Source of the DNA: Asterionella formosa
Lineage: Eukaryota
Direction of reading: 5' to 3'
Length of the DNA stretch: 20,000 nt
Assembly: GCA_002256025.1 (NCBI GenBank)
Contig: NKIB01013073.1
Location: forward strand, 44,600-64,599
In this document: positions 1 to 20,000 of the stretch, in pieces
Layout: every line of letters begins with the position of its first letter
How positions within the stretch are numbered: position 1 is the first letter of the stretch
Notes under the pieces: model-generated
Seen by the model: the letters and a program-made list of their open reading frames with translations, nothing else
Database searches by the model: none
Told to the model about the DNA's origin: nothing
Made by a program: the position numbers and the translations under genes

Positions 1-3000
1 TTACAATAGGATCGAAAATAATCCAATAACATTGCTTATGGCAATTAAAGAACACGCATTAAATTTTCAAGAAAATCGATATTCAATGTCGATTATTTTA
101 GATGCGATGAGAACTTTTTTGCTTACAAAGCAAAAGGAAGGAGAAAGTCTACAAGACTACACCAAGAGATTTCGTGTGGCATGAGATGTGCTCAAGTCAC
201 ACATGGGAGGACCAATTATCCTCACCAAGTTTGTTGAAGCCATGGACAAATACAACGAGACTGACATCAAGCAAGCTACGAGATAAATTTCGCAAACAAG
301 CTTTCAGTCAATTTATGGCCTATTTATATCTCGATAATGCCGATAAACCAAATACGGATCAATTATGACCGGGCTGAACACTCAACAATCACTCGGCAAC
401 TATCAATACCCAAAGAGCATCATCGAGTCGAATAATGTTCTCAGCAAGAACCATCGGTTTGACGTAACAAGAAATAAATCCAAAAGTCACAAGAAACCAG
501 GAGATCATAATGAAGAGAGAGAACAAAAGGATGCAGGGAAGGAAGACGAAGATGTGAACTTGTCGTTTGCACAGTTAGAAGGAAAATGTTACTGCTGCGG
601 AAAAGCAGGTCAAAAATCTCCTTCGTGCAGAGACAAGAATAAACCCGAAGATGAATGGGCTATAAACAGGGCCCAAAGCCATGCACAGGCACAGGCTAAG
701 AATACATCGGACACAAGTACAGTTACCTCTGTTAATTCCAACAACCCGCCGTCATCACAAGCTTCACAACAAGCAAATGTTAATCAATTTGGATGGGCGG
801 GAGCTCATATGAAACTTCAATTATACCAAGCATCTGAGATGCATGACTGGATACTATTGGATAATCAATCAAGTGTCACAGTCTTTTGCAATCCAAAAAT
901 GGTTGATAACATTCGAATGTCAACCAATGGAAGCATGCACCTGGCCACAAATGGTGAATCCATGGTCGTCACTAAGATTATGAAGGCTGATCTTCCACAA
1001 TGGGGAAAAGAATGGTTTAATGAGAAGGCAATCACAAACATCTTCAGTTATGCCGAAATGGCAGATAGTACTAGGTACAGAATTACCTACAACTCTGAAA
1101 AAGAAGATGCATTTATTGTTCATTTGCCTGACAAGCCAGTTCGATTCAAAAGAATTGGGATGAACTTAACTTTTTTCAAGCCTCCTACAGCAATTAAAGT
1201 GGAGAATGCTCAAATCTTTAATTCAGTTGAAGAAAGCAAAACATTTTACACTGAGCGTCAATTTAAAAAAGCGAAGTGAGCTCGTGATCTATTTCATGCC
1301 TTGGGTACACCATCAATTAATGATTTCAAGGCAATAATTCGTATGAATACGATCAACAATAATCCAGTTGTGACCACAGATGATATCAAAATTGCAGAGA
1401 AAACTTTTGGACCTGACATCGGAACACTAAAAGGCAAGACAACTCGTCTCAAGCCGCTGCCAGTCGTGAACGACTACATCGAGATTCCTAAGGAGCTTAT
1501 CAGAGCTCAACGCAAAGTGACTCTTTGCATGCTGGATGGAATGAAAGTGAATGGACAATCATTTATCACAACAATTTCTCGAAACATTATGTATAGGACA
1601 GCGCAATGGGTCAAGAATCAGACAGCTGAAGTCTATCGAGATGCTTTGACTCAGGTAGCTATTCCGTGTTTATAATACCGGAGGATTTAAAATTTCAGCA
1701 ATTCACTGTGACAACGAGTTTCGATCTTTGATGGAACAAATTTCCAATGAATTTCAAGTCACTATGAACTAAGCAAACCCACAAGAATGTGTTCCTGAAG
1801 CGGAGCGAAATAATCAAGTGATTAAAGAACGCGTGCGCGAAGCTTATCATCGATTACCTTTCAAACATTTGCCACGACTGATGATTAAGATTCTAGTGAC
1901 AGAATCTGCAAAGAAACTGAATTTCTTTCCGGAAAAGAACGGGATATCCCCGTATTACAGTCCTCGTATGATTTTACATCAACGAAACCTGGACTATGCT
2001 CGACATTGCCAGTATACATTTGGCACTTATGTCCAAGCACATGAAGAACCTGTGTTTTCAAGCACTAATGCACCACGCAGCCTAGATTGCATTCATCTAC
2101 GCTACAATGACAACGTGCAAGGAGGTCATGAGCGAATTATTAAACCTACCTACAAATTCATTGATCACTAGACAAACAGTTACTCCTCTACCACTTACCC
2201 CTGCAATCATGAATCAAGTACATGCCCTTGCTGTGCAGGAAAATATGCCAGATGGTCTCAAGATATCAAATCTAACGGGACAACTTTTTCATGATAGTGC
2301 TTGGATTGCAGGAGTGGATTATGATAATGAAGCATTTGAAGATGCACAAGATGAAGATTATGAAGATCAACAAGTTAGTGAGGACTATGAAAGCAATGAT
2401 GAAATTCTCGGAGAAGATTATGATGAAATGACTCCGGATGAAATATATGAAGCAGAACAGCTCGAATTAAACAACAATATCCAAGAGGATGACCCTGAAC
2501 CTGAGGGCAACAATGAAAATAATGTTGAAACGAATGCAGCAGATGAAATCCAAGATGAGGATGAAGAACCAGTAAATAAAAATGAAAATGAAGAGGCAAT
2601 GTTAAAAGTCAATCAAAGCACTGAGGATGACACAGACCCAAATGTTAGAACTACAAGGTCTGGAAGAGCCTCAAGACCACCATCAAAACTAACTATGATC
2701 CAACATCATTTGCATACCCAAGCACACTGTCAAGAAGAATACACGACTGATAATGCGAAAGTGATCGCAAAGACAATGTTTTAAATGAATGAGATGTGTA
2801 TCGATAAAGAAGCATTTCACTTTGTTCAGTCATACAGCTTAAGGAAAGTCCAAAGGAAATTTGGCCAGAAAGGAAGAGACGCAAAATTAGTCAAGATCAT
2901 GAATTTCTTGAAAGCAGCTCAGAATGAGGTTGCATCTATGAGTGCTGATGACACTCAGAGCATTAAATGGTACGTTGATGTGGCGTTTGCAGTACACAAA

Positions 3001-3426
3001 GTTTTTAAAAGTCACACTGGACCTACATTGTCACTTGGAAACGGAACTATTTGTTCTATGTCTACGAAACAGAAAGTGAACACTAGAAGTTCGACTGAAG
3101 CAGAATTGGTTCGTGTCGATGACATTATATCAAAGGTGTTATGGACGAAATAATTTATTGAAGCACAAGCAAGGACATAAGGTGACTACTAGTAATGTCA
3201 TTTACCGTTACAACACTAGCGCAATGAAGCTAGAAGCAAATGGAAAAGCAAGTTCAGGAAAACGCACGCGACATTTCAACATCAAATATTTTTACATTAT
3301 TGTTCTTATTGAAAGAAAGGAAGTACAAATTAAGTACTGTTCAACGGATGCCATGCTAGCAGACTACATGACAAATCACTGGTTGGAACGAAATTTATTC
3401 ATTTTCGTCAGCAAATTATGAATTGA
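1..3426 (+). pseudogene. Disrupted gag-pol polyprotein of the copia element
   Basis: ORF fragments 365-1279, 1301-1675, 1818-2171, 2107-2784, 2785-3153 and 3113-3421 join into one polyprotein when stops (TGA 182, TGA 1277, TAA ~1770, TAA 2782, TAA 3151) and several frameshifts are bridged. The probable original end is ...FRQQIMN* at 3424-3426. Confidence 0.9.
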
Positions 3427-3444
3427 AAGTAGCCATCCGTGTCC

Positions 3445-3454
3445 AGCAGGAGTG
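3445..3454 (+). other. Polypurine tract of copia element 1
   Basis: AGCAGGAGTG lies ~20 nt after the pol stop and directly abuts TGTTGG. Confidence 0.7.
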
Positions 3455-3646
3455 TGTTGGAGAAATTATTTTAGGAAAGAAAATCCGGTATCAATTACCT
3501 ACTACATATTGAGGAATCGAATGAATCAAAAAGAATACCGGTATGGTACCAGAGAAAACTCAGAATTCGAAAACAATCTACATCAACAGTAAAACCCATA
3601 ATTCTACTAAAACTCTTAGGAACGATTACAATCGATTACTTCAACA
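3455..3646 (+). repeat. Putative 3' LTR of copia element 1 (~190 bp)
   Basis: Starts TGTTGG right after the PPT and ends TTCAACA at 3646 (TGTTG...CAACA termini). An alternative CAACA ends at 3588. The 5' LTR is not in the window, so the end is unconfirmed. Confidence 0.6.
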
Positions 3647-3694
3647 TCGTTGTTCATATCTACAGCCTATTTGGTCCTTAACGTGTCCTTACAG

Positions 3695-4875
3695 GATACA
3701 AGAAAGCATAGAGTGCTTCGGGACGCAATTTCAACAATTTGTTATGCTTCTTGATGCCACTACACCCTTTGCTTTGCAATATGTCTAAGCAGAAACCTAT
3801 TCCCAAGATTCCTTAATGACTCAAGAACTTTGGCAAACGGAGTTCCCCAATGAGTCATTCTTTGCTGAAAATGGTGAGGTTGGAGAAATTCCTGATCCTA
3901 GATGTGAGCGATCAGTTTCTCTAATGGCAGGTTTTGATTTGTCAGGATCCTCCAAGCGCCAAGCAGGCTTTCTTTGGCAATTCTCGACATCTTCATTCGA
4001 AGATATTGAGTTTTTGGAGCAGGGAGTCATAAACTACTGGAAATTTCTCCTCTTGAAGCCAAGAGCATAGAAACAGGGGAAAGTTTAGTACCAACATACT
4101 AGTACATTACTTGATGGAAACAGCATTCCATTTTTCTGTCTTGCCTTTGTCACTCTTCATCCTCACCCATTCCATTCTTACTTTCCTCTTTGCTTATTGT
4201 AGTCAAATCGATACGATGTTGCACACACACATGCTCTCGTCAATTGCTGGCTACGACTCCGACTGCAAGACCATCATGGGTTCAACATTGCACCACATCG
4301 ATTTCTTGGTTGACCGCACCAAAGGTAGCATTTTGGATCTCTAGTATCAATCAACCAAGCAAATGTGGCTTGATGAGTTTGGTTCTGAGTATGTGGTGGA
4401 CGGTGGCATGTATCGAGGCGAACCTCCATCCTCCTATTACAGTGCAGAGTGGCAGCCTACAGGAGCTCCTACAATGGTTGTGGCCAGTGAAATGGGAGCT
4501 TCCTCAACATCATCAAACAGAATTTTGCTACCTTTCAAATGGGCAACTATCTCTGATAATACCTCAGATGGATCTCCTGCCTTCATTGCTCCAACTGACA
4601 AATCAGAACGCCGTGAAAATCTATGAGGTGAACAATACCGTGAGTATTATGTCCTTGGCAACAAGGTTAACAACATAGTTGGCTAGCTACTATTAGCTAC
4701 CTTGAGACGAACGAAGCCCATCAGATAATTTTTTCAAGACTTCTGTTCAGGATCCAATATTAGTTGCATTGATTCCCTGTTACCACTAGTGTCTTAACTG
4801 CTGTTCGCATATGAAGGATTACGTAACAAATAAACCATCTGTCTACAAGCAGATCGGCGTTCTCGAAAAAATGCG
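3695..4875 (+). pseudogene. Glycine-rich domain-containing protein (GRDP/DUF1399-like) pseudogene fragment
   Basis: Fragments GFDLSGSSKRQAGFLWQ..FLEQGVINYWKFL, VPTY|QIDTMLHTHML, LHHIDFLVDRTKGSILD and WLDEFGSEYVVDGGMYRGEPP match the GRDP motif series (VPTxxIDxxWHTH, HDDSxxDR, GxMYRGEPP). Multiple stops (3786, 4068, 4342, 4624, 4684) and frameshifts; remnant intron 4102-4202. The 3' limit is approximate. Confidence 0.82.
4102..4202 (+). other. Remnant intron in the GRDP pseudogene
   Basis: GTAC... start, pyrimidine-rich body, ...TTGTAG end. Splicing joins VPTY to QID. Confidence 0.7.
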
Positions 4876-4879
4876 TTTT

Positions 4880-5523
4880 AATGAGTTAAATAGAGATGCA
4901 CAATTGCTCTGTTTTTGTATTTAAATCTAAATTAATTAATTAAAACCAGTTTAACATTAGTTTATTATATTCCATACATGTACATATCGCCAAATGTTGT
5001 TATACATTGGCCAGCCACTCAACTATTTGTGGGAAACCAATAAAAAGAGTATTTTTCATTTGGTAAACTTTCTACGACGGTTGTTGCACCTAGCTAAATG
5101 GACCATACTGCCAGATATTTAACAGTTACAATCCTCAAAACGAGCATACCATTGTTTTCTTCCTTCCCATCATTGCCACTTTTGGGGTTGCGCATTCCAT
5201 AATTGAATGCAAGTTGCCGTTGTTCTACTTTTATATCGTACTTTGTACGTATGTTGAGAATAGATGCATCGAAGAAAAATGGGTCCTCAGCATGCATCTG
5301 CATTTTGCTTGAGATAGTTGTAGCCATGAGTGAAAAACGAAAAAGTCGAAAAACATTTTTTCAAATGTAGTTGCCAAGTCTTTCTATATATATTATATAC
5401 ATGGATCCGTAGCTTAGAGCTATTCGCACAATAGGGCAATTGAGCTGGAGAAAATCGTAGGAGTCAAAATGGCCCCAGATAAATTTGAAAAATCGATGCA
5501 AGTAATATTGGACAGAGGGAGTA
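4880..5523. mobile_element. Truncated Tc1/mariner (Stowaway-like) DNA transposon remnant; only one terminus visible
   Basis: Ends GGACAGAGGGAG-TA (5510-5523), the reverse complement of TA-CTCCCTCTGTCC, which resembles the Stowaway/mariner TIR plus TA target site. The interior is AT-rich. No matching left TIR was found and the left boundary is a guess. Confidence 0.5.
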
Positions 5524-5570
5524 CAGTTTTTACCCAGAACCCTAGCAGTAGTCTACCCATATACTGCGTG

Positions 5571-6300
5571 CACTCTGATAAGAAAAAATATTACATTATG
5601 TGTATTACAACACAATCATTGTACCCATAAACCAAAAATTTGTGCTCACATGCAACCTTTTTTGTGAATCAAATGTTTGAAGAAAAGAATCCTAATAATT
5701 CTTGTGTTTTTTAGCTAAGTACATATCATTTCATCCTGCCAAAATGAGGGGTCCATTGCTGTCATTTTGATTTTCAACTTCTTTGTCTCTCAGATAATAG
5801 CTGATGTTTGGAATGCTGCCAAGATTTACTGGGAGATGAAAATGTTGAACAATTGCAGCAATTTTATAATTTCAGAGATTCATCACTCATATGTCTGTGT
5901 GTAGAAAACCTTCATAGACTTTGCCTGTGGTGGTTGTGGTAGTGGTTGTGGATTTGGATTTGGATGTGGTGTGACCAATGGTGCTGACTGATCATATCTT
6001 GCCATGCATTTCACTTTACTGTCAGCACCATAAATGTGAGTTGTTTCATTTTTTTATTAGGACAGGCTGCATGGGTTGCTTAATTCATTTGATCGGTTTT
6101 TCAAACATACTGGTTTATCAATTTTTTTACATAAAATAAATCTAGATTGCGCCTTCCAAAATGCCACAAGATGCACTTGATCGTGACTTTTTATGAAGCA
6201 GCAAGGTACACTCTATGTTACAAAAATGAATTTGTATGATGAATAGAAGTACTGGTAGAATTTTTCACGGACGGCGCATGACCTTTTTTCATAGTATTGC
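5571..6300 (-). other. Unidentified decayed, CpG-depleted relic with a Pro-rich coding-like stretch
   Basis: Only about 3 CpG in 5581-6240 (by eye). The minus strand reads ...SAPLVTPHPNPNPQPLPQPPQAKSMKVFYTQTYE** across the TGG/TTGGA repeats at 5927-5975. Confidence 0.35.
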
Positions 6301-6560
6301 CCCGGCCACCCAATTTCGCGAAAATGTGCCTACTATGTATGAAAATTACCGTAGTTATTCCGAGTACCTGGTGCCGGTACTATAATGCAACAAACATTAT
6401 ACCGGTATATAGACTAAACTAGAGTCTTTGGTCCCAGCATGCTTCTTGCAAGTGCACTTCACTCCCCGCTCCATTGACCACCACCAAACGGCAAGAACAT
6501 TTTCATTCCTAGCCTATAGTAACGTCTGAACATATCGACATTACCCTATCCAAAGCAACC

Positions 6561-8363
6561 ATGGCACAATCCGTCGAGACCAAAAGCAGCAACAAGAAAA
6601 AGAAAAAGGACCCTGATGGTGAATTGAACGTCGCTCGAGGAAATGTCATTTCCTCCTCCGAATCCAAAAAGCGCCGCATCAAGCTTCTGTCTGCTAAATC
6701 TCCACTTGACCAAGAGCGTATTCAATCATACCTTCAAAGGGACCACCATGCGGAAGAACGCATGGCAGCCATGATACAAGACGATCGAGCACCCAAGTTG
6801 GAGCACTTGACAGAACATCAACGTCGGTCGTTACTCAAACGAAGCAAGGCAGTTCACAAGGATAAGGCACTTTTGGCGAACTTAGAACGGCACGAAACGA
6901 AGCGTTTGGATGCTGCTGTATCCGCAGCGGATGCACAAGTAATACTGAATACAGAAACACCAGGGCTGATTCAAGCCGAGCATGACATGGAGCGAACTAC
7001 TAGATTGACTCAACGGGAGTTGAAGAACAACTTCTTGGATGAACAAACAGCGCAACAAATCTATGATTTGAATTTGGATAGCTATGCTCCGTATGGAATC
7101 AAATATGATCGATCAGGCGCTGCAGCTGTGCTTTTTGGAAGAGGCGGCCATGTTGCCTTGATGAACTGTCAACAACGATCGCTAAAAACTGAATTCTATC
7201 TCAACGAACGCGTCCGCGACGCTTGTTTTCTCCACAATACCACTTTATTTGCAACGGCACAAACCAATCACGTCTATATTTATGACGATGCGGGAGCTGA
7301 AATTCACAAGCTAGATGACCACACCGACCCGACAAGGCTGGATTTCCTCCCCTACCATTGGCTTTTGGTGAGCGTTGGCCGTGCTGGCTATTTAAAATAC
7401 CACGACACCTCCACTGGAACGTTAGTCTCGCAGCATCGTACCAAACTAGGCCCTTGTGATGTAATGCGCCAGAACCCGTCCAACGCCATTATGCATTTAG
7501 GGCACAAGAGCGGCGCTGTGACAATGTGGTCACCTGCATCAAGTACTTACCTGGCCAAACTTTTGTGTCACAAGGGAGCTCCCGTTACCTCGTTGGCAGT
7601 GCAGGGAAATGTTATGGTGACGGGTGGAGCCGACCGGCAGGTGCGCATTTGGGATTTGAGAATGTACAAAGAGACGCATGCGTATTGGACTGCAGCAGGG
7701 GTCCCCACATCGCTGGATATTAGTCAACGGGGGGTGTTAGGGGTGGGACATGCGGGGCACGCTACCTTTTGGAGTCCTGAGGCACTACGAAGTAAGGTGC
7801 AAGACCCGTATATGCATCATGACATGGCGGGATGTAGTCCAATAGAAACGTTGAGATTTCGTCCTTTTGAAGACGTATGTGGGATTGGTCATGCCAAGGG
7901 AATCAGTTCGATTGTTATTCCTGGCTCAGGAGAACCAAATTTGGACACCAATGAGTTCAATACCAATCCTCACACAGACAAGAAACAACGGCGAGAAGCA
8001 GAAGTCAGAGCTCTTTTGGACAAGTTGAGTCCTGACATGATATCCATCGACCCAGATGTTGTTGGTGGGGTAGAAGCAAGCGATCCTCACAGTCGTTATG
8101 AACGATTAAAGGACATTCAAGAAGAAGCCAATGCCAAGGTCATTCCCAAGAAGAAGCAAAAGAGCAGGAAACGAGGTCGCAGCAAAATTCAGACTCAACT
8201 TCGCCGCAAGGCGAGGAATGTGGTGGATGAAAATACAGTCAAGTTGCGCGAGGCTCGAAACCAAGAGAAGGCTCAAACGCAGCGCGAGCTCAATACGGAG
8301 GTTGGCGGACACCACCAGACGCCCAAGGATGTAGCACCGACAGCACTCAAACGATTCTTTTAG
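6561..8363 (+). CDS. UTP7: WD repeat protein 46 / Utp7 (BING4), U3 snoRNP small-subunit processome component
   Basis: Intronless 600 aa ORF. Basic N-terminus, LDFLPYHWLLVS, MRQNPSNAIMHLGH, WD repeats (RQVRIWDLR), and BING4CT-type LRFRPFEDVCGIGH..SSIVIPGSGEPNLD..RREAEVRALLDKL; ends ALKRF. Confidence 0.96.
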   Translation: MAQSVETKSSNKKKKKDPDGELNVARGNVISSSESKKRRIKLLSAKSPLDQERIQSYLQRDHHAEERMAAMIQDDRAPKLEHLTEHQRRSLLKRSKAVHKDKALLANLERHETKRLDAAVSAADAQVILNTETPGLIQAEHDMERTTRLTQRELKNNFLDEQTAQQIYDLNLDSYAPYGIKYDRSGAAAVLFGRGGHVALMNCQQRSLKTEFYLNERVRDACFLHNTTLFATAQTNHVYIYDDAGAEIHKLDDHTDPTRLDFLPYHWLLVSVGRAGYLKYHDTSTGTLVSQHRTKLGPCDVMRQNPSNAIMHLGHKSGAVTMWSPASSTYLAKLLCHKGAPVTSLAVQGNVMVTGGADRQVRIWDLRMYKETHAYWTAAGVPTSLDISQRGVLGVGHAGHATFWSPEALRSKVQDPYMHHDMAGCSPIETLRFRPFEDVCGIGHAKGISSIVIPGSGEPNLDTNEFNTNPHTDKKQRREAEVRALLDKLSPDMISIDPDVVGGVEASDPHSRYERLKDIQEEANAKVIPKKKQKSRKRGRSKIQTQLRRKARNVVDENTVKLREARNQEKAQTQRELNTEVGGHHQTPKDVAPTALKRFF

Positions 8364-8469
8364 GCAGCAAGTGAACACCGTAGCTATATTGGCATGGATT
8401 ATTTATAGACCAAGACTAGTCTAGGAGTGAGTTTATGTTCATCTGTTGTGATAGGGTTTTTATTTGTTC

Positions 8470-10411
8470 TCAGTATGTTTCAAGCACTGCTAGACTCAAG
8501 CCTTGACTAACGACTGGATCATTGCGAAGCAGCTGTAAAAGAGGTTTGATCACAACGTTGCGAATCTCTTCTCTGCTTGTCCCTTCAAGTTGTAAACTTA
8601 CTAGAGGATCGTGAAGACTCTTTCGCAGCATAAAGAAGCCCCCATTTCCAATTCTCACACGAACACCTTCCAAGTTGTCTCGGTCCAGGGACCATGTGCT
8701 CTCGGTGATACAAAATTGCTCCAACGCTAAGGATGCCGCATCAAAGACAGTCACCGTTGTTTCTAACGATTGATCAGTAACATCCATACGAAGCTCTTGA
8801 GTCTCGGGCATTTCTTTCAAACCAGCAATCAAATTCAACAAGCTCGTTCGATCATTTTTGGACCGAGCCAAGAGGCCAATCACTTTGACTGCTGTATAAG
8901 TACCATCGTCTAGGTAGCCATTTTCTTTCATGGCGCAATGTCCCGAAGTTTCAATGGCCAGCTCTGCATTGGCAATACCCGCTTCTGTCAATTCACGAGC
9001 CTTCCCAATGACGTTGGCATATCCCTTTAGGTATCGGACATGCTGTAGGCCAAGATCATCTTGTAGAAAGGTTGCCAAACCTTCGGATGTGACCGAGTCC
9101 GTCACAACTGTACATCCCGGAGCTGCTTGACTGAATATAACTCCCAACAAGGCAATGAGACGATTTCGATGGAGAGGTTCATAGTTTGAGTTTTGCCCAT
9201 CTGCCGTGGTAGATCGAGGCACGACAAAGCCACATCGATCAGCGTCAGTGTCTAGCATAATGCCTATATCGGCATTTGATGCTTCGCATATTTGCGTCGT
9301 TTCGTCTACCATATTCTTAGATTCTGGGTTCGGTATGTATACAGGAAAATCTCCATTTGGTTCAATATGTACTGACGCAGACATGTCAGCTCCAAGTTCT
9401 TGCAAGACCTTGTTAAAGAATCCACCCGAGCCGTGTCCAGCGTTAAGGACAATCTTCAATCCAGCCAAGGGTGCGTGACTAATGGTACCTACTTCTCTCA
9501 CAATAGCGTCCGTCAATGTTTTGGCATAGTGTGGCATCCAGTCTACCCACTCAGTGCAAAAGACCGCCCCCGCTCCAGATGTCGGAGGGATGATGCCCGT
9601 GTCATGCCAATACTGGGCCTGAAGGGCTGCAAGTTCGACCAATCGTGCAATATCACTCTTGCTAAAGCCACCGTCGTTTTTGGTGAATAGTTTAAAGCCA
9701 TTGCGGTCCACTGGTAAATGCGACGCTGTTGCCATGACCCCTCCATCACAAAAGTCGGATCTAACGTGTATCATGAGAAAGCAGCAAAATCGTGAGTTGT
9801 TCCTTCCTCGTCGGCATGTGCCACCTCCCTTCCCCCCTAGTAGTATCAACTCACCTACAAAATTCTAACATGGCAGGCGTTGTGGCAATTCCTGTGTACA
9901 GCACCTGTACCCCCGGGACACTTTGCGCTCCGCGTGCAAATGCATCACTGAGGCGAGGTCCATGCGGCCGAGGATCGGTCCCAAGTCCAATCTTGACCGT
10001 GGATCGCGTTTCTCTGAGCATGGTTGCGAATGCATATCCAAAGCAATGCGCCGCCATTGGAGTTAGGGCTGGTAATGTGTTTGTGGTAATTCTGTGTGCC
10101 ACATTGGCAATGGATCCCACGCGCGCATGGTCTATAAACTGACCCCGAATGTCAGACCCAGATTGCAGCTTTGAGATGGATTGGAGGAGGGTGGAGAGGC
10201 TCGGAGGCATGTTGGAGTCATCGCAGTCGGAGGAGGAGAAGAAGGACGCGACAAAGGCGTCGCTGTCTGTTGTTTTGCTGTTGCTTGGCGACGAGGCGGA
10301 GAGGACCACATTGGCGCTACGACGGGCATGTTGCTGGAATTTAAAACTATGTGCTGAGCTCAATAGAAGCGCTGTGAGCGACAAAGACAGCCGGCTCTTT
10401 TTAGTCATCAT
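8470..10411 (-). CDS. Phosphoglucomutase/phosphomannomutase (alpha-D-phosphohexomutase) family protein, probably plastid-targeted; exons 10411-9855 and 9760-8470 (~615 aa)
   Basis: Motifs GSDIRG, ATTPAM, catalytic TASHLP, metal-binding DTDADR and sugar-binding ETSGH. A GT-AG intron joins the two ORF-track pieces in frame (EFC-R-SDFCDGGVMATASH). First ATG is at 10411 (10417 is TTG). The N-terminus is a hydrophobic signal ending AHS-F followed by an S/R-rich transit-like stretch. Confidence 0.93.
9761..9854 (-). other. Intron (94 nt, phase 2) of the PGM/PMM gene
   Basis: Minus strand AG|GTGAGT ... CACGTTAG|A; removal restores the frame. Confidence 0.9.
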
Positions 10412-10762
10412 AATCAATATAGAGAATGAGCAAAGGAGTTGATTGACGAAGGAAAGTTGGAACGAGCAAACTTATTCAATTGCTGAACTTTGAATTATGA
10501 TCGAAGTCTAATTTCCATCACACATTCATCAAAGAATTACGGATGTGTCCTACCGGTAGTATTACATAACATCCATGTACGTACTAGGCTGATGGTCCGT
10601 TGATGTCTGCAATCTGGAATCGGCAAAAAGGGTTCGCGAAGAATGGAATGAGATCAGTTTGTTGCAGTATCTGTTCCTTTTAACCGTTAAACCGTTAGCC
10701 TTCATTTTTGCTCTCCCAATTTCCGAATTTGCTCTGCTGGCTCCTTCTGACAAGTATTCCTC
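10412..10762. promoter_or_regulatory. Compact divergent intergenic region (probable bidirectional promoter) between PGM/PMM and the transporter
   Basis: Head-to-head genes ~350 bp apart, with the palindrome CTACCGGTAG near the middle (10550-10559). Confidence 0.5.
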
Positions 10763-12610
10763 ATGGCATGTCGGACGAAGAAATTATCTCATTATTATTA
10801 TTTAAAACACATGAACGACAGTGGCAAATGTGACCAACATCCCGCAGGAAGCAGCGGCACTGACGACGACGACCTCACCATGACAGCATCTGCCTGGCTC
10901 AAGAAACCCCTCTGGGTCATTCACGAACAAGAAATGCAGCACAGCTCGTCGGTCGAACGACATTTGACGCTCTTGGACCTGTGGTGCATCGGAGTTGGCG
11001 GGACCATTGGATCTGGCATTTTCGTCTTGACTGGATACATTGCTCATCACTATGCAGGACCATCCACGTTCGGGAGTTTTATCATTTCGGGCATGGCAGC
11101 ATCTTGCAGCGCGTTAGCATACGCCGAACTGGCAGGTCGGTTGCCAGTGTCAGGGTCCACGTATTTGTATGCCTACGTCGCTATGGGAGAATTGGCTGCT
11201 GTTGTGGCAGCCGCGTGTTTGACTTTGGAATATGCCGTGTCGGGAGCTGCGGTGGCGAGGAGTTGGGGAGACAAGTGTGTGCTGTGGATCGTGGACCAGT
11301 GGAATATACCCGAGGCAGCCACCTATTTGGACCCAGGCTACGGCATCAACCCAATGGCATTCCTTGTGTCAGCGCTGTCCGTGGCGCTACTACTGGGCGG
11401 TGTAAAGGAGTCAAAGGGAGTATCAAATGCCATTACAAACTTTAAAGTTTTCTTGGTCATATTCATGATTGTTGGGGGCTTTTGCTTCTTCAATACAGAC
11501 AACTTTAAGCCATTGCTACCCTTCGGAACTGCTGGTGTCATGCGTGGGGCTACATCTAGTTTCTTTGGGTACCTGGGGTATGACGAAGTATGCTGCCTAG
11601 CTGGAGAAGCCTTGCATCCACAGCGTGACATGCCGCGAGCAGTCCTTGCCATTATTTCCACAGTCGCCGTATTGTACGTTCTTGCTGCCATCGCCTTGAC
11701 GGGAATGCAACCCTACACGACCATAGATGATACCAGTGCATTCCCTGCTGCGTTTTCATACCACGGTCTGCAATGGGCGGCACAACTCACGGCTGCTGGA
11801 GAAATTGCTACGTTACCAGTCGTGGTGCTCATATCGCTCATGGCGCAACCTCGCCTTCAACAAGCATTGGCCAAGGACGGATTGTTGCCTGGTGTCTTTG
11901 GAAGGGTGGATGAAACAGGAAACTTGAGGGCTGGAACTTGGCTGTCAGGCATTGCGATGACGCTTCTTGCTACTTTTTGTCCTTTTGGAATGTTAGATGA
12001 TTTGATATCGGCAGGGATTTTAGTTGCCTTTTCCATGACGAATGCATGCTTAGTTCTTCTAAGGCATGAATCACCTCCCTCCGATCCGAACTTACTTACC
12101 AATCTGTTATTGTTCTACAATGCTTTGTGTTTTCTGACGAGCATGATGGTGTCGTATGTTCAATCGGGTGCACTTGCAACACTATTTGGTTTTTTTACTC
12201 TACTGACAGCCATGTACTTGTGGTGTCACTGCCCAACATCAACATCCTTTGGAGGATCTATCTATCGATCACCTACATCACACTTGACATATTTCAAAAC
12301 GCCACTGGTTCCGTTCCTACCCTGCCTTGGAACTTTTGTCAATTGGTATCTGATTAGTCAGCTGGAGATGATCGGTCTTTTGCTGTTATTGGTTTACCTT
12401 GGTCTTGCCACAATATACTATTACAGCTACGGTGTCAAACACAGCGTTGGAAATACCACTGGTTGGAGAGGAGGACCGTACGAAGGACTGGCTGATGTGG
12501 ATGCGGATGCGGTGTTGCTGAGAACCATCTCACTACCTAGGGTCAGCCTAACATCGAATCATGAGAAGCTCGACGAGCCTGCAATTCGTGATCTCGGCGA
12601 GTTTTCCTAG
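10763..12610 (+). CDS. Cationic amino acid transporter (APC superfamily, CAT/SLC7-like)
   Basis: 615 aa with many hydrophobic helices. Motifs LERHLTLLDL..IGVGGTIGSGIFVLTG, YAELAGRLPVSGSTY, FFGYLGYDEV, E..HPQRDMP, QPRL..LAKDGLLP, and C-terminal FKTPLVPFLPCLG. The true start could be 10763, 10811 or 10880. Confidence 0.94.
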   Translation: MACRTKKLSHYYYLKHMNDSGKCDQHPAGSSGTDDDDLTMTASAWLKKPLWVIHEQEMQHSSSVERHLTLLDLWCIGVGGTIGSGIFVLTGYIAHHYAGPSTFGSFIISGMAASCSALAYAELAGRLPVSGSTYLYAYVAMGELAAVVAAACLTLEYAVSGAAVARSWGDKCVLWIVDQWNIPEAATYLDPGYGINPMAFLVSALSVALLLGGVKESKGVSNAITNFKVFLVIFMIVGGFCFFNTDNFKPLLPFGTAGVMRGATSSFFGYLGYDEVCCLAGEALHPQRDMPRAVLAIISTVAVLYVLAAIALTGMQPYTTIDDTSAFPAAFSYHGLQWAAQLTAAGEIATLPVVVLISLMAQPRLQQALAKDGLLPGVFGRVDETGNLRAGTWLSGIAMTLLATFCPFGMLDDLISAGILVAFSMTNACLVLLRHESPPSDPNLLTNLLLFYNALCFLTSMMVSYVQSGALATLFGFFTLLTAMYLWCHCPTSTSFGGSIYRSPTSHLTYFKTPLVPFLPCLGTFVNWYLISQLEMIGLLLLLVYLGLATIYYYSYGVKHSVGNTTGWRGGPYEGLADVDADAVLLRTISLPRVSLTSNHEKLDEPAIRDLGEFS

Positions 12611-12854
12611 AAATTCCATGACCCCATTCTCAAGCTATCCTAGGGGACTACCGGTATTTCAACAACGGATTATAGTTGAGCCCAACCATTGTTGACATCA
12701 CGTAAGCCGTCTGTATGTCTACCGCGTCATGTTTCTGCCGCTATTTTCTTCTCGTTTCCTCTCATGATTTCGGTATTTTATTTTGCGAGAGACACAACGT
12801 CAATCAATTTTATCTGACGTCGTTCTTCTTGGCGGACTTGTCAATGGAATCAGC

Positions 12855-13656
12855 ATGCACACTTCATCATTCTTCTTCAGAACAACATTTTTCTGGCGGT
12901 GTGCGTGGATGGCTTTGATGCATCTGACAGTTTTCGTTCAATGCCAACGCCCAAACGGATACAAACCCTCGTTGCCCGCGTTTGCTTCTCCATCTATACC
13001 ACCTCCTCCGTCCATATCCATGCCTGTTTGGTCCCTCGCAAGTCCCATCGGACAGGATACATCCATGAATATTGTTACGTTTGCGATCCCAGTATCGGTG
13101 GCTCCCCCAAAGATCTGGGCTGTTTCGCTGTATTCCAATACGAAAACGCGCACCGCATTTCTTCAGTCCAAGGTGGGGGTGCTGCAACTCTTGACTCCGT
13201 CGATGAAGCATGTCGTGCCTCTATTAGGAAAAAGAAGTGGTTACGAAGAAGGTTATTCAAAGAGAGTCGCATGTGCTAATCTTGGGCAAGAGTGGATACA
13301 ATGTGACGACACACCCAAAGGATCTAGTTGTTTCCCTATGGGGCGAGAATGTAGGTAAGTCGAGGTTTATCCCCTCTGTCCTTTTTCAGGAAAGTGGCTA
13401 CTTGTGGTGCTAAATTATTTTCCCGCTATTATTTATCAGGATTGACCTACTTCCAGGGTGCGCATCGTATCTCCAATTAAAGGTACTGTCTACGCATAGA
13501 GCTGGCGACCATGATGTTGCACTGTGCGAAGTGCTTGCCAGTGGAATGTGGAATGAACATTACAAAACTATTATTCTTGCTGAGGAAGGCCCCAACTTTT
13601 TGGATTCAAAAAATGTTCTTTATTCGGGTCAGTTACGAGACGAAGGCATCATTTAA
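12855..13656 (+). CDS. Flavin reductase-like (FMN-binding split barrel) protein; exons 12855-13354 and 13440-13656 (~238 aa)
   Basis: MNIVTFAIPVSV.PPKIWAVSLY..TKT, LQLL, LGKRSG, and after splicing LLPGCASYLQL..AGDHDVALCEV (GDH motif); ends LRDEGII*. First in-frame ATG is at 12855 (12783 is TTG). The N-terminal extension may be a targeting peptide. Confidence 0.85.
13355..13439 (+). other. Intron (85 nt, phase 2) of the flavin reductase-like gene
   Basis: AG|GTAAGT donor, GCTAA branch-like motif, TTTATCAG|G acceptor; removal restores the frame. Confidence 0.9.
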
Positions 13657-14380
13657 AAATGTGGAATCCGATCGTATACTTGCTTGTTTCCATGAGAAAA
13701 TGCTGAGGGCACACCAAATTCATTGCAAGAGGTCGTTTGTAACTGTAATTGCTGCCAAAAATGATCGTTTATCTGGCAGGGCGGCACTCGCCACCAAAAG
13801 TAGAAAGAATTCTTTGGACGAAATTGGTCATAGCACGACATTTTGTACACCATTTGGAATGATGAATAAATTGTCCCGGGCTCCCCGGTCATGGAATGAT
13901 GGTGTCGTGCAACATTTGGGTTTCTTCTGCCTCTCCGCCTGTTTCAATCACGAATTTGCGTAAATGATGCGAACACCAAACATCGAACATCGACTGCCAC
14001 AGCACCGTTGGTACCGTACCCCTACATACCAGTAACCGCCACCTAATTATATACGGACCGGTACAGTACCAGAGTACCAGTAATCAAATTATTATACCGG
14101 TAACCAGCATCCATTTTCTTACAAATTTACGGGTACTTGAATTTAGTATAGTATAATTAGCATTCTTCGTGAAAAAGAATGCTTGTATTGAATAAAATGA
14201 CTTGAATGTGATTCACTTCTTCAGCTCGCCACTTGTGAACCCAGACAGTAGTAACCTATATCTACTCTGAAGTCCAACAACTGATAAGAGTGGATGATGG
14301 GTAAGGGTGCTAGCAATTAGTATTTACAAGTTAGTTTCTATATACATCAATTCCACTCAATCCCTCATACATGTTGTTAT

Positions 14381-14863
14381 TCATTCTGTGACTGCAATTT
14401 GGTGTGGGCTTCCAAAAAATGACTGCATGGCTTTTCCCGAGCATTTCCGGTCGCGATGCAAACGACGGCACCCACGTTTCACTTCCTCCTCGGGAATATC
14501 CGCAAGGATGTTTCGACGGTCATCAAAACTTAAACGGAGCTCGTGACGAGGCCTGCGACATGGGCATCGCTTTTCCTCATAGTCGTCAATAGAGCAAGTC
14601 TTCTCCTCTGAATAGTCCCAACCCAAACTGACAGGTGGTCCTTCTAAACAACAAGGGTGATCACCGAGAATCTGAGAGTACTCACGAATATGCGTCTCGC
14701 CAAAGCTAACGTTTCGACGCGATGCCGGCTTGGGCGGTTCAGAGAGCTCTATCTCCATCATGGTATCAGATCCTTCCAGTTCCAGGAAGCCCTTTCCTAT
14801 TCTCAAAATAGGCTCTGCAGTCGATAAATCCATGTTTATACGGTCCATTGTCGTTCCTCCCAT
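14381..14863 (-). CDS. Uncharacterised 160 aa protein of a diatom-type family (VSF..IREY..LGDHP.C..GPP.SLGW)
   Basis: Intact ATG-to-stop ORF. The core RRNVSFGETHIREYSQILGDHPCCLEGPPVSLGWDY..SIDDYE..R..L.L...R..IL resembles a multi-copy hypothetical family I recall from diatom proteomes (not verified by search). Confidence 0.8.
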   Translation of the reverse strand: MGGTTMDRINMDLSTAEPILRIGKGFLELEGSDTMMEIELSEPPKPASRRNVSFGETHIREYSQILGDHPCCLEGPPVSLGWDYSEEKTCSIDDYEEKRCPCRRPRHELRLSFDDRRNILADIPEEEVKRGCRRLHRDRKCSGKAMQSFFGSPHQIAVTE

Positions 14864-17364
14864 AATGTCTGATAAGAGGTGAATGACTCAAAGTGGAAGT
14901 GCGCGAAGTTCTGATTTTTGAAAACGGTTCTCAAAAGTTTCAGATATTACAAACTTACACCCTTCTGAACTCCGCTTAGATGATATATTGCCTCAGAGAG
15001 AGGGATCACTCAATGTCTTGCAAACAGAAACAAAGAGGAACTGACAAAAGGGAGCACAATATCGGTGCGTACAGACAATGCGTGATTGTTTTCAAGTTCA
15101 TTAAAAGTGCAGAAGAGTTTTATGTGACCTTTTTTCTAACATGTAGTAGGCTATCGTGTGGAGCACTACATACATCCTGGTATGTCGGATGCAGCGGCGA
15201 TAAATTCCGCTCGTAGACCACTGTGCAAAATGTTGGCAGGACAACGAAAACAGGTCGACGCAGGCAAGGGTCAACGCATGCAGCAAGCAAGCACATCCGG
15301 TACACAAAAAGCGAAATGTGAAAGTGCACAACAAATTGCTGCTGTCGTCATCATCCCAGTCATGCAAAGAAATACAGTAGAATGCATCTTGCATGACCTC
15401 CTGAGCGAACATACTCCGGGTAGGGTGCCCTGTTGGTACCAGTAACTGGTGCTCCCAAAACTCGGGACATCAGTGATTATATACCGATAATTTGTGTACA
15501 GGAAAGGTGAAAGGCATTTTCAGGAGTGCGTTCCGTAAATTCTACAGCATGTCCTTATTTAGACCTCGCAAATAAATTTTGGCGGCTGGCTGGCGGCGAG
15601 ATCTGATACCTGCAGGCGTTTTCATTTGGAATTGACATACCCGTGGGCGGTAAAAGCAAAAAGCAAGGTGCTGCTCTCCTTGGCATACAGTATACCGGTG
15701 AGTTCAAACAAGAAAAAAATTTGTCCCTAAAAGATTTGTTTAACATGACCGATAGGTCTAAATTCCTATTATGAATACAAAGGTCGCCCAATAGATTTTA
15801 TACTAGTATAATGTTGTATAGTATATCAATTTCTGTCAGCCATCTACCGTTGCGGCTTCAACGGACAATTTCTCCTCTCGTCGGAGTTATGAAAAATCAT
15901 TACCGGATCCATTACCACCGGTACATCGACGAGGTCCTTACGAGAATGTACAGATAGCAGTCTAGAAGTAGCCAGCTACCGGTGCATATACTGTACTTAG
16001 GAGGCATTACTTACCGTAAAACCTGGTTTCTCGTATCCCCATACCGGTGCAACGCACCAGTATACCTTTTTACCCCAAGACAATGAGCACCAAGGAGATT
16101 TGGTCACCAAGAGGGAACATTTAAAAGTATACTTACCACTACACCATTTCTCATGGAATTTTGTGTGGGTCAAACTTGTATGTCAAATGATCTCTCGAGA
16201 ATGAATATATTGTTTCCTTGCTGAAAAATTGTGCTTATTTTTTCAACAAGGTTCCCTGGTAGCCTATTTTTCTTGCTTGCACATCAAGGAAGGTTGAGCT
16301 GAACAGCAGAATAGAATCAAACAATTGCTTCTAAAATCTAGTGCTGGAATCAAACCTCACAACCGTACGACAAAGACAAGAACATGATGCTAACCATTAG
16401 GCAATTCCTTCTTCTATCCCATTAAGTTTGGTCCTATGCCTGGGTGCAATTTTTAGAGCCACTGGCTAGACCCCGTATGCCTGCTAGTATTAGCATAACT
16501 CTATCCCAATTGTCAATAATATTTTGCGACTGAATAGGCATGATACAAACACATGTATCATGTTGGTACTATTCTGTTGCTTTTCTCAATAACAGAACAA
16601 CCTCCTGCACCAGTAACTCAATGTTTTGAAATTTCATTCAACAAATTAAATTGTTTTGCTACTGATTTTCTAGTAGTATTTAAAAAAATATTTGAACACA
16701 ACAATAAATCTGTAATTCATATGCGTTGTGGCTGTACAAAGCAATACCTGCCATCGTGTCTTGCTTGATTGCAGAATCCATAAACACTCTTAAGAAGTCA
16801 ACCATGTGTGCAAGCAAGTGACACCAAACCTCTAGTTATTATTGCCATAGCTCACATACCTTGTATTATCATCACCATAGCTCAATCCTGATTCTTGTAT
16901 GTCCATACTGTGTCATCGAAAACATCATCGTCCTCTTCTATTCATCAGCTATTCACTCCCATTGAGATTCTATCAGGATACATGGTACCAGAGTTACCTG
17001 ATGGTGCATCAGATTAGTCTACCTATGTAATACTGGACCACATTCTACTTAAAGCCACCTGCCATCAGCAAAAGTATTCAAATAGTATGCAAGAAGTCAC
17101 ATGATGTACTGTTTGTTACCGCCTACTTCCAGTTAGAAAATATTTATCTCCTCATCCAACCATTGGGACTTTTCCAATGAACAAAATGATGAATTTACTT
17201 TCTTTTGTTGCTTTGTGGTATGAATCAATCTAGTTTGAAGGAGACTATATGGGATGATTGATTTGAGGTAGGAATGCCTTCCAGGAGGTATCCCTACCCT
17301 TGGAGATGCCATAGGTTGTAGGTGTTTGTCAGAATGGATCATTCTTGTCTTCATTGGGAGCTTC

Positions 17365-18813
17365 TCATAAATCCTTATAGGTATCATTGGTACACAATGA
17401 AGCTTTTTTGCTGCCATCTGTACCACCCCACTCCTCTTCCTGGTAGACGAGTTTACATTGAGTCCCCGAAATTTTGGTGGCAAATAGTGCGTAAAAGCCA
17501 ATTCCATAGGTAACACATCTAGCATTGACTGCCAGCATCAAATCGACAAAGGTAGCATAATACGCTGGCGCAGATCGTCCTTTTTGTCGATCAATGTGAG
17601 TATTCTCCATTGACATCTCGCGAGCAACCACATTGATTGGTCCCACTGCCTTCAAGGCTGCCTGATCGATGGGGTTGTCAAAGAGCGTCTTATTTCCCCC
17701 CAGATACTGTGGATCTGTAAGTTCATGAACCATGTAACGGACCAAATCATTCGAATCTGCAAAAAAGTAAATTGGTTCAGATGGCGTGGAGGCAAGTGTT
17801 CTGGCACACATGACAGCATGTGTTGCAATTGAAACCGCAAAGTCTTTTGTTATTCCTAACCAGGGAAGGCCTGTCTTGTCCGCAGGGTAGGATGGATTTT
17901 TCCCTTTCACCGTGGTTCCAAAAGCAGTCGCTTTAGGATGTCGGACACGACAGTGCACCGCTGTATACTGGCCCTTTTTGAGCCCCAAACTTTTGTAAAC
18001 TAGATCTAATGCAGCCTGCACAGGTTCTGATGGCTTGAAGAAGGCACGAAAAATCTTTCCAAAGCTGGGCGTCCAATGAATCATATCCGTCTCCCCTAAA
18101 TCCTGCAATCGTCGTTCCAGTATGTCTTCATTCAAGTGGCCTAAGAGAATATGTCGCAAGACCTTGATATCTTTGAACGCCCCATACCTCGCTCGTTCTA
18201 TACAAATATCCAATTCCGACTCCCAAAACCTTTGTACCGGTCGATCCGAGCGATATCCTTCAAAAAACTCCTTCTGTGACCTCGTTTCTTTAATGTCAGC
18301 AAAGCCCTTGACGTCTATCGGCACCGTCCAATTGAAGGCATTCGGTACCAAAAAGTGTTCTAACTGCTGGGGTCGATCCCATTTAATAAACAGCACTCGT
18401 CTCGTTTGGTTCGCAAGATACAAATCCCAGGGCAATTGTCCCAATCGATCATGAAGCCCACCGCAAAGACCCATACAAACGCGGACAATGACATTTGGTG
18501 CATCAGGATGTTCAAATAGTAACTTGCCCGGATACAGTGCTCTCATTTCATTGTGCCAAGCAATGTAATTGGTAATCCATTGTGGCATACCTTGAGTGCG
18601 GTAACTTGACGTTAGGGAGGCAGCAGCAGCAGCGTGTCCGGGAGAAGGAAAGGATTGCTTTGGTTCAGGAGTTGTATACTGAACAAATACAAGGCAGATT
18701 TGTAGACTGAAGAACGTGACGAAGAAGCATGCCAAAACGGCCTTTACACTTGGGCCTTTTCGTCGTTGCTTGACTCTTCCGTACTCGATAGGTTCATGTT
18801 TTCGCTTCCACAT
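17365..18813 (-). CDS. Type II membrane glycosyltransferase, O-/alpha-fucosyltransferase-like (GT-B fold)
   Basis: 482 aa. Basic N-tail, single TM helix (AVLACFFVTFFSLQICLVFV) and stem. Fucosyltransferase-like motifs CGGLHDRL, YTAVHCRVR (HxR), IYFFADS and FVDLMLA..ARC. Confidence 0.8.
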   Translation of the reverse strand: MWKRKHEPIEYGRVKQRRKGPSVKAVLACFFVTFFSLQICLVFVQYTTPEPKQSFPSPGHAAAAASLTSSYRTQGMPQWITNYIAWHNEMRALYPGKLLFEHPDAPNVIVRVCMGLCGGLHDRLGQLPWDLYLANQTRRVLFIKWDRPQQLEHFLVPNAFNWTVPIDVKGFADIKETRSQKEFFEGYRSDRPVQRFWESELDICIERARYGAFKDIKVLRHILLGHLNEDILERRLQDLGETDMIHWTPSFGKIFRAFFKPSEPVQAALDLVYKSLGLKKGQYTAVHCRVRHPKATAFGTTVKGKNPSYPADKTGLPWLGITKDFAVSIATHAVMCARTLASTPSEPIYFFADSNDLVRYMVHELTDPQYLGGNKTLFDNPIDQAALKAVGPINVVAREMSMENTHIDRQKGRSAPAYYATFVDLMLAVNARCVTYGIGFYALFATKISGTQCKLVYQEEEWGGTDGSKKASLCTNDTYKDL

Positions 18814-18923
18814 GATGTTCTTGTTTGCTAGAAGCAGTGACGGCTAGGAGACAAGAAGACTCGTCATTGTCCATTTGTTTATTTATTCAAAACAGAAAAA
18901 CAATACGAATACACAGCAAGTAC

Positions 18924-18946
18924 AAATAATAAATAAATAAATAAAT
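18924..18946. repeat. (AAAT)n microsatellite
   Basis: AAATAATAAATAAATAAATAAAT upstream of the glycosyltransferase. Confidence 0.7.
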
Positions 18947-19089
18947 ATATACATAGATAAAATTTAGTTCTATTGTGTGGTCGATGAATCCGACGAGGAC
19001 ATGAAAAGTCCTGGTACCTAGTACCTTTTACCATGTACCATGGACCTGGTACCTGTACTGTGATTCATTTCTATACCGGTGTACCGTTC

Positions 19090-19468
19090 TGTTGAAAGGT
19101 CTCGTACTCCTTCCCGTCTGACGGGTTCCTCTTTCGTAGAACTTACCTGCTATACCACTAGTATTGTTATCTTCTTTCTGCTGCTAGCCTTCGTGCTAGT
19201 TTTCGCTATTGACCTTACTCTGTCAATTCTCACTGTTTCTTAATTATAAGATTAAACTAAAACTAAGTTTCAATCCCATTCATCACACTTCGAGAACCTG
19301 TTCTTCGTGTTCCCTTTTCGTTGATGTAAACCTTCTTCTGATTGATCTAAGACATCAATCTCGTTAGCAAGCTTCTTGACATGGGAACGCACCATTTGAC
19401 TCATTGGACTATAATCGAGTCCACAGTCCTTGTGACTCATTATAGCCATTGATGCTATATTCTTGACA
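19090..19468 (-). repeat. Putative 3' LTR of copia element 2 (379 bp)
   Basis: On the minus strand it begins TGTCAAG right after the PPT and ends CCTTTCAACA at 19090 (TG...CA). Candidate TSD is 19085-19089. Confidence 0.7.
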
Positions 19469-20000
19469 TCCTCCTCGTTACCATGTTCAAGAAGTTCTAA
19501 AATTGTACCACTCAGCACGGGTCCAGATAACCTTGTAAAAATCTGCTCTTTGACATTCTTCGTCAAAATGTCTGCTGGATTGTTTTCTGATCTTAGAAAA
19601 ACAATATGCAACTCACCCTCATCTATCATGTTCTTGACATGATGAAACTTAATATCAATGTGTTTTTGTAGTGGACCTTGTTCCGTGATATTAAAATCCT
19701 CCTTGATCATATTTTTCATGTAGTCCACTGCATTCCTGGTACCACAAATAATTCCATCATCCACATAGTTTGCCAACAGCCCTTCAATTTGTCCATTGTT
19801 GTTACGGTAGATAAACAACATTGGGTCTATTTCGCTTTTCGTTATACCTTTCTTGCTGGTGACGCATTTCGCAAATGTCTTGGACCAGCATCTTGGAGCT
19901 TGTACAATTCCATACATAGCCTTAATTAATTTGCAGATATGTATATTCTGATCGATCCCTGTCAATCCTTCTGGGGGCTCAATATAAATGTCTTCGTCGA
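19270..20000 (-). pseudogene. Copia pol fragment (RT fused in frame to the RNase H C-terminus by internal deletion)
   Basis: The frame is open from the window edge to TGA at 19270. The end of RT and most of RNase H are missing at the KH junction (19660-19665). Confidence 0.85.

Follow-up and report, generated by a model that had tools for sequence, protein, structure and literature searches.

The window analysed here is a stretch of 20,000 nucleotides (nt) from the diatom Asterionella formosa (GenBank assembly GCA_002256025.1, contig NKIB01013073.1, positions 44,600 to 64,599 of the forward strand), whose left part holds a retrotransposon copy, a pseudogene and a miniature transposable element, all three carrying short insertions of stereotyped form, here called scars. 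The window has a UTP7-like gene whose named homologs come almost exclusively from diatoms, and it occurs mainly in freshwater sequencing runs. Most scars lie in a decayed Copia-like long terminal repeat (LTR) retrotransposon copy on the forward strand at 1..3740, with its 3' LTR at about 3455-3740, which has many sister copies of 88-92% identity and lacks about 1-1.2 kb of sister sequence at 2882. We take this copy to be Copia from the label of the initial annotation and from its motifs; a Pfam search with four of its open reading frames (ORFs) gave no match. A GRDP-like pseudogene with four paralogous loci follows on the same strand (3760..4753), the paralog at locus L064 matching PF07173 in Pfam with an E-value of 7.8e-18. 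The third host is a Stowaway-like miniature inverted-repeat transposable element (MITE) at 4753..5522; its left end is eroded, its right end reads GGACAGAGGGAG followed by TA, and it holds three further 3-nt scars at 4798, 5074 and 5288.

The initial annotation had described several of the inserts as TA-palindrome-TA words and regarded them as insertions, and every word that it named is present at its position. Alignment to sister copies and paralogs, which are without the extra nucleotides, indicates that the inserts are derived and not ancestral. The 4 extra nt at 1656..1661 (TA-GC-TA) are absent from 29 of 29 sisters, as is the 6-nt gain TA-GTAC-TA at 1066..1073 from all 29 covering sisters (GGCAGATAGGTACAGAAT stands here in 25 of 27 matched sisters); the latter probably represents two successive TA-G/C-TA scars. 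In the unrelated GRDP-like pseudogene, 8 nt at 4684-4699 are extra relative to three of three paralogs and fit two TA-GC-TA scars, at 4684..4689 and 4694..4699, so that the same inserts are common to unrelated loci, as had been claimed. Within positions 1-4800, TAGCTA occurs three times where a first-order Markov model expects 0.6 (p=0.03), and TACTAGTA twice where it expects 0.01. Two proposed one-codon additions are indeed 3-nt gains, with a qualification for each: the gain at 3187..3194, extra in 28 of 29 alignments, can be read as TA-G-TA only with one added substitution, since the sisters show TACGAATG or TACAAATG, and at 4097..4101 (3 nt extra against 3/3 paralogs) TAGTA is already present in the paralogs, so that the new part is TA-C-TA and no CTAG palindrome was inserted.

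At least ten more gains of the same build are present in the Copia-like copy beyond those first noticed, at AA, TC, TG, GA and CA instead of TA. Sister alignments place AA-GC-AA at 269..274 (4 nt absent in 19 of 19-20 sisters; alternatively a tandem AAGC) and at 3167..3172 (alternatively a tandem CAAG), AA-G-AA at 446..450, 469..473 and 698..702, TC-G-TC at 966..970 (29/29 sisters; alternatively a tandem GTC), TG-C-TG at 1530..1534, GA-GC-GA at 2130..2135, CA-G-CA at 2537..2541 (alternatively a tandem GCA) and GA-G-GA at 3511..3515. The pseudogene adds AA-C-AA at 4660..4664 against 3/3 paralogs (alternatively a tandem CAA). Four other gains in the Copia-like copy, at 976, 1369, 2380 and 3553, show no clean fit to the scar form.

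We compared all fetched loci of at least 300 bases pairwise, and retained indels with clean flanks and at least 60% support among at least 4 covering loci. Insertions outnumber deletions among these polarised indels (174 against 54), and the insertions include 89 of 3 nt and 41 of 4 nt. With XY denoting a dinucleotide, 112 of the 174 insertions have the form XY>XY-G/C-XY (78 of the 89 3-nt insertions) or XY>XY-GC-XY (34 of the 41 4-nt insertions), and 73 of the 112 are not tandem duplications. Among insertions whose duplication spans exactly two bases, 46 of 48 have G or C as the spacer (p 2e-16) and 12 of 17 have GC; in a larger, unpolarised set the GC form accounts for 98 of 174 4-nt indels, and CG alone for one. 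The spacer is G or C in 66 of 70 cases in which XY consists only of A and T, which indicates that it was not copied from the flank, and such fixed spacers derive from neither slippage nor flank. A flank-hairpin footprint of the hAT, CACTA or RAG kind does not fit either, as the G or C complements neither X nor Y in 96 of the 133 3-nt indels with a two-base duplication. In 231 kb of non-coding DNA, XY-GC-XY words are enriched 1.4-3.7x for 15 of 16 dinucleotides, as compared to 0.6-1.4x in ORF-like DNA, and XY-CG-XY words show no comparable enrichment pattern in the same non-coding sample. These observations establish a real, genome-wide and stereotyped insertion process that is wider than a TA rule.

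TA is the commonest target of the process, with 32 of the 112 scars and a 4-6x enrichment; a specificity for TA is not supported, because the other 80 scars lie at other dinucleotides. The suggestion that palindromic element ends are the rule is not supported either, as the majority of spacers are a single base and TAGTACTA may equally consist of two successive one-base scars. Compound words such as TA-GTAG-TA, TA-CTAC-TA, TA-GCTAG-TA and TA-GCTAGC-TA occur as well and point to repeated hits; TAGTACTA is most simply explained in this way too. Among 15 non-GC cases there are five CA/TG spacers, which may be retained Plavaka ends (see below) or decayed CG.

Counted strictly, the window copy carries 2.1-2.3 scars per kb, whereas 136 kb of sisters contain 24 (about 0.18 per kb, the sisters being best-scoring matches and thus biased to few indels), and 34 kb of copies of another transposon family, family B, contain 46. 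Neutral DNA is therefore not saturated with footprints, contrary to what had been suggested. The branch leading to the window copy has 0.047 substitutions per site, or about 13 substitutions per scar (14 scars are listed for 1-3740), and no significant correlation links the density of scars to the divergence of copies (p=0.20, 0.08 and 0.48). Scarring is heavy yet patchy, and short of saturation. A second, young Copia-like family lies at 19200-20000, with about 99% identity among copies and 689 bp absent from some of them, including that of the window; a comparison of 38 kb of this family, at 0.9% divergence, gave zero polarised insertions.

Two resident families with inverted ends of the form C...G duplicate two bases of target on insertion. 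The ends of the first, CATCTAAGCCGCG (CATCT..AGATG), were counted 593 times as exact matches and lie upstream of a transposase frame at three loci. PF18759 has 43 matches in the genome, and the transposase frames are open over up to 770 amino acids with C(2)C and H(3)H motifs. Identical 2-bp flanks were found at three of three paired contigs, one of which has an additional, non-matching right end. The PF18759 transposase, the C(2)C and H(3-4)H motifs, the inverted ends and the 2-3 bp duplication together identify these CATCT-ended elements as Plavaka. Family B was found through a nested insertion in a Copia copy; it has ends CGTCTGYAAATAAAAA (632 exact ends), and six of eight pairs have identical 2-bp flanks (TA, GA, AA, TG, AC and GG). 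Its C-starting inverted ends and 2-bp duplication fit the CMCT clade, to which Plavaka belongs, although its termini are CG..CG and not CA..TG. Pfam searches on 27 and 8 ORF pieces identified no transposase for family B (one DUF matched below threshold), and its copies are decayed or non-autonomous.

Both the duplication length and the target spectrum of the scars are matched by these resident elements. TA flanks 23 of 48 Plavaka ends and 9 of 109 family B ends, and the XY spectrum of 281 scars is indistinguishable from that of Plavaka (p=0.42) and from an equal mixture of the two families (p=0.83). We also scored the sequence context of scars with matrices built from element ends, against XY-matched background sites. 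The flanking context of scars resembles that of pooled Plavaka and B ends (z=8.9, and 5.7 when the adjacent base is left out). Scars of 4 nt agree with the Plavaka context both away from TA (z=4.1) and at TA (4.2), and the B context is fitted by the 3-nt scars (z=5.2 and 3.6) and by the non-TA 4-nt scars (4.2). A control matrix from TA-flanked mariner-like ends gave z between -2.3 and 2.2.

The inserts are derived, stereotyped and present in unrelated loci, and are best read as excision footprints, as the initial annotation had proposed. By a statistical link, their probable sources are cut-and-paste transposons with C...G ends, namely Plavaka and family B. Insertion doubles XY, as the 2-bp duplications at many dinucleotides show, and the element would later be excised. 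To judge by the letters of the scars, a single G would then be added to the 3' strand of each broken end before the ends are joined; if both were kept the product would be XY-GC-XY, and if one were kept, or the ends overlapped with a mismatch, XY-G-XY or XY-C-XY. New hits on the resulting XY would yield compound words such as TAGTACTA. The favoured source of the G is untemplated addition by a host polymerase. Alternatively, a nick one base inside the element would leave its terminal C at the tip of a flank hairpin, and opening 5' of this C followed by fill-in would write a G. The spacers of four 5-nt gains are GGC/GCC, and the element-derived TGC/GCA/CGC/GCG are absent, which, in these small numbers, favours tailing. 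That Plavaka-type excision is repaired with a near-invariant single G per end, by tailing of the kind performed by terminal deoxynucleotidyl transferase (TdT) or after a cut one base inside the element, is a plausible proposal that we hold tentatively and, on balance, with slight doubt.

Several observations weigh against an origin from Plavaka and family B. Retained C...G ends predict CG, so that an extra step must be assumed. The XY spectrum of the scars differs from that of B alone (p=1e-4), and the 3-nt scars do not fit the Plavaka context (z<1), for which the matrix came from 48 ends; the context comparisons comprise several tests, all with small matrices. Part of the shared context could reflect DNA accessibility and not a single enzyme. 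Comparison of B loci with Plavaka loci by tblastx gave no transposase for B, and Atlas gave no usable match. No site shows both element and scar, one ambiguous case aside: at metagenome locus L304 TA-CGAC follows a B copy, and the corresponding loci L326 and L330 of the genome itself read CCGG-TA-C-TA-CGAC, which is scar-like, with the left flank missing and a plain empty site fitting equally well. About 25 other B flanks have homologous empty sites with no scar. Finally, among the listed Arabidopsis Pack-CACTA empty-site clones, none of 24 has the form of a target site duplication (TSD) on either side of G, C or GC, the junctions being flank-derived or deleted as far as the available part of that report goes (PMC6379663), which counts against a clade-wide rule.

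The ambiguous case comes from 26 metagenome matches, 10 of them B-like, for which three flanks were searched in the genome; of the other two, one site was unaligned and one was empty, with GA-C-GA next to the insertion. At L298:1490-1500 a GA-C-GA scar lies one base off a family B insertion, a hint of repeated hits at one site. A site at L185 falls within a Glu-rich paralog and is uninformative. The gene start at L324 in the genome has several small insertions relative to the metagenome copy L304; we take the gene to be kinase/phosphatase-like from its motifs.

Breaks that arise independently of transposons are an unlikely alternative, in which ends cut with a 5' stagger of 2 nt would be filled in, gain G and be joined, giving the XY duplication and an untemplated spacer without any donor element. 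Enzymes of the topoisomerase VI or Spo11 type cut with such a stagger, the GGC/GCC spacers agree with tailing, and scars are far more numerous than resident elements. However, the XY spectrum and context track the targets of two resident families with 2-bp TSDs, and plain 2-nt gains, which are expected without tailing, make up only 5 of the 174 insertions.

We consider it improbable that the scars stem from an unfound G...C-ended family with a variable 2-bp duplication, whose two terminal bases would stay behind as 3' overhangs. A mariner-like inside cut would explain GC directly, but an inverted-repeat scan of about 0.45 Mb (<1.5% of the genome) recovered no such family, and the candidates TAGGGCAATTGAGC and TAGTTGCAACC resemble internal parts of Stowaway-like or longer repeats. 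Two apparent elements of the form TA-G...C-TA and a CGATAGCTAG inverted repeat were dropped, as their flanks are common among copies or they are part of Stowaway-like ends. From L141:7764 to L142:1933, CGATAGCTAG inverted repeats enclose a 4.2-kb repeat that has a 380-amino-acid ORF and whose true ends are further out.

The initial account, in which every scar was left at TA by a Tc1/mariner element with palindromic ends, has little to recommend it as a general explanation. The enrichment of TA agrees with it, as do resident TA-flanked elements with CTCCCTC and CCAG ends, and in the non-coding sample TACCGGTA is enriched 42x and TACCAGTA 8x, in a TA-specific manner. It is contradicted by the 80 scars at other dinucleotides. 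The TA-flanked elements begin with C, for which the expected residue is CG or CC..GG, and an origin of TAGCTA from them is not supported. Their context is GG-rich: of 38 mariner-like ends, 71% and 63% have G at the two bases before TA. It fits the scars poorly, the matrix scoring the non-TA 3-nt scars at z -2.3 and the TA scars weakly, at 1.1 and 2.2. Mariners may be the source of some TA-C/G-TA scars. The hypothesis that the spacer consists of the element's terminal bases is plausible for the CCAG/CCWGG class only, as GC spacers contradict C-starting elements.

Scars of the form TA-CCGG/CCWGG/CCAG-TA constitute a separate class, which fits the mariner reading and would derive from different, TA-specific Tc1/mariner-like elements. 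CCAGG/CCTGG at TA is among the top 8-mers of the non-coding sample, and a TA-CCGG-TA scar lies at 3536..3543 in the window (6 nt absent in 28 of 29 sisters). At window position 13769 (the TA at 13770..13771), TA-CCGG-TA replaces TA in about half of the depth of two samples from a single study (runs X2 and X3), which indicates that this class segregates today. Reads over 3800-19200 show no G/C-type polymorphism among the 12 indels listed of 33. A profile search of the genome with DDE_3 (PF13358) gave no match, so no transposase is tied to the TA-flanked elements. At L148:20-3259 a CCAG-ended, TA-flanked element has a Harbinger-like element nested in it, which begins with GGGCC and has a TTA duplication.

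Ordinary replication slippage is very improbable: a tandem reading is possible for 32 of the 89 3-nt and 8 of the 41 4-nt gains, but it is refuted for the non-tandem majority with fixed spacers (73 of 112), and 3- and 4-nt gains outnumber 1- and 2-nt gains by 130 to 31, while deletions are mostly of 1 nt (35 of 54).

Stowaway-like MITEs of the plant type (TA, then CTCCCTC ends) are present in a diatom, both at 4753-5522 and at L066-L090, and their copies are preferentially placed within GGTACC-rich scar arrays. Words of the types GGTACC, TACCGGTA and TACCAG are densely clustered in intergenic DNA at 14010-14100 and 19012-19085. In the interval 16136-18705, runs X2 and X3 are without cover at 16650-18191, where X6 and X7 are covered; a hole in the contig is no proof.

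Transposon excision footprints are textbook knowledge, and untemplated, G-biased N-nucleotides are added by TdT at a transposase-type break in V(D)J joining. The scars described here differ in having nearly always one G per end. We found no description of such scars in open-access full texts, the domain of our search, which did not extend to subscription journals. PlavakaA/B of the CMCT clade are described as having a PF18759 transposase, C(2)C and H(3-4)H motifs and 2-bp duplications, and PlavakaB as having CATCA..TGATG ends and a 2 or 3 bp duplication (Kojima 2025, PMC12730594). The elements found here share the domain, motifs, 2-bp duplications and a CAT-like start with these, but unlike PlavakaB end in CATCT..AGATG; the words footprint, hairpin and diatom do not occur in that paper. 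The available parts of PMC3193017, PMC4423477, PMC12312487 and PMC9674265 give no CACTA or Plavaka footprint sequences. Footprints of Stowaway/mariner elements, as far as the accessible text describes them, resemble the scars in retaining both duplications with few extra bases between (PMC4561436), but they lie at TA and their extra bases come from the ends of the element itself, whereas here XY varies and the spacer GC is the complement order of the candidate ends. Related clades, namely hAT, Transib, RAG and MULE elements with flank-hairpin excision (PMC5499845) and Arabidopsis Pack-CACTA (PMC6379663), leave central bases that are complements and not copies. In the portions of these reports at hand, the extra bases are flank-derived and accompanied by deletions, in contrast to the constant, flank-independent and nearly deletion-free scars of A. 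formosa.

In the repeats examined, about two thirds of the small insertions are scars, and insertions exceed deletions by 174 to 54. If repair of Plavaka excision with a single G per end is confirmed, it would give this lineage its first footprint rule and would be the chief origin of small insertions in its repeats (112 of 174). It would then account for an insertion bias of about 3:1 and for frame-preserving codon gains, and past jumps would become countable genome-wide. The 3-nt form preserves the reading frame and could add codons to genes. Should Plavaka be the source, the scars would read out the cutting by an uncharacterised transposase related to RAG and CACTA, together with the repair of the resulting breaks in a diatom.

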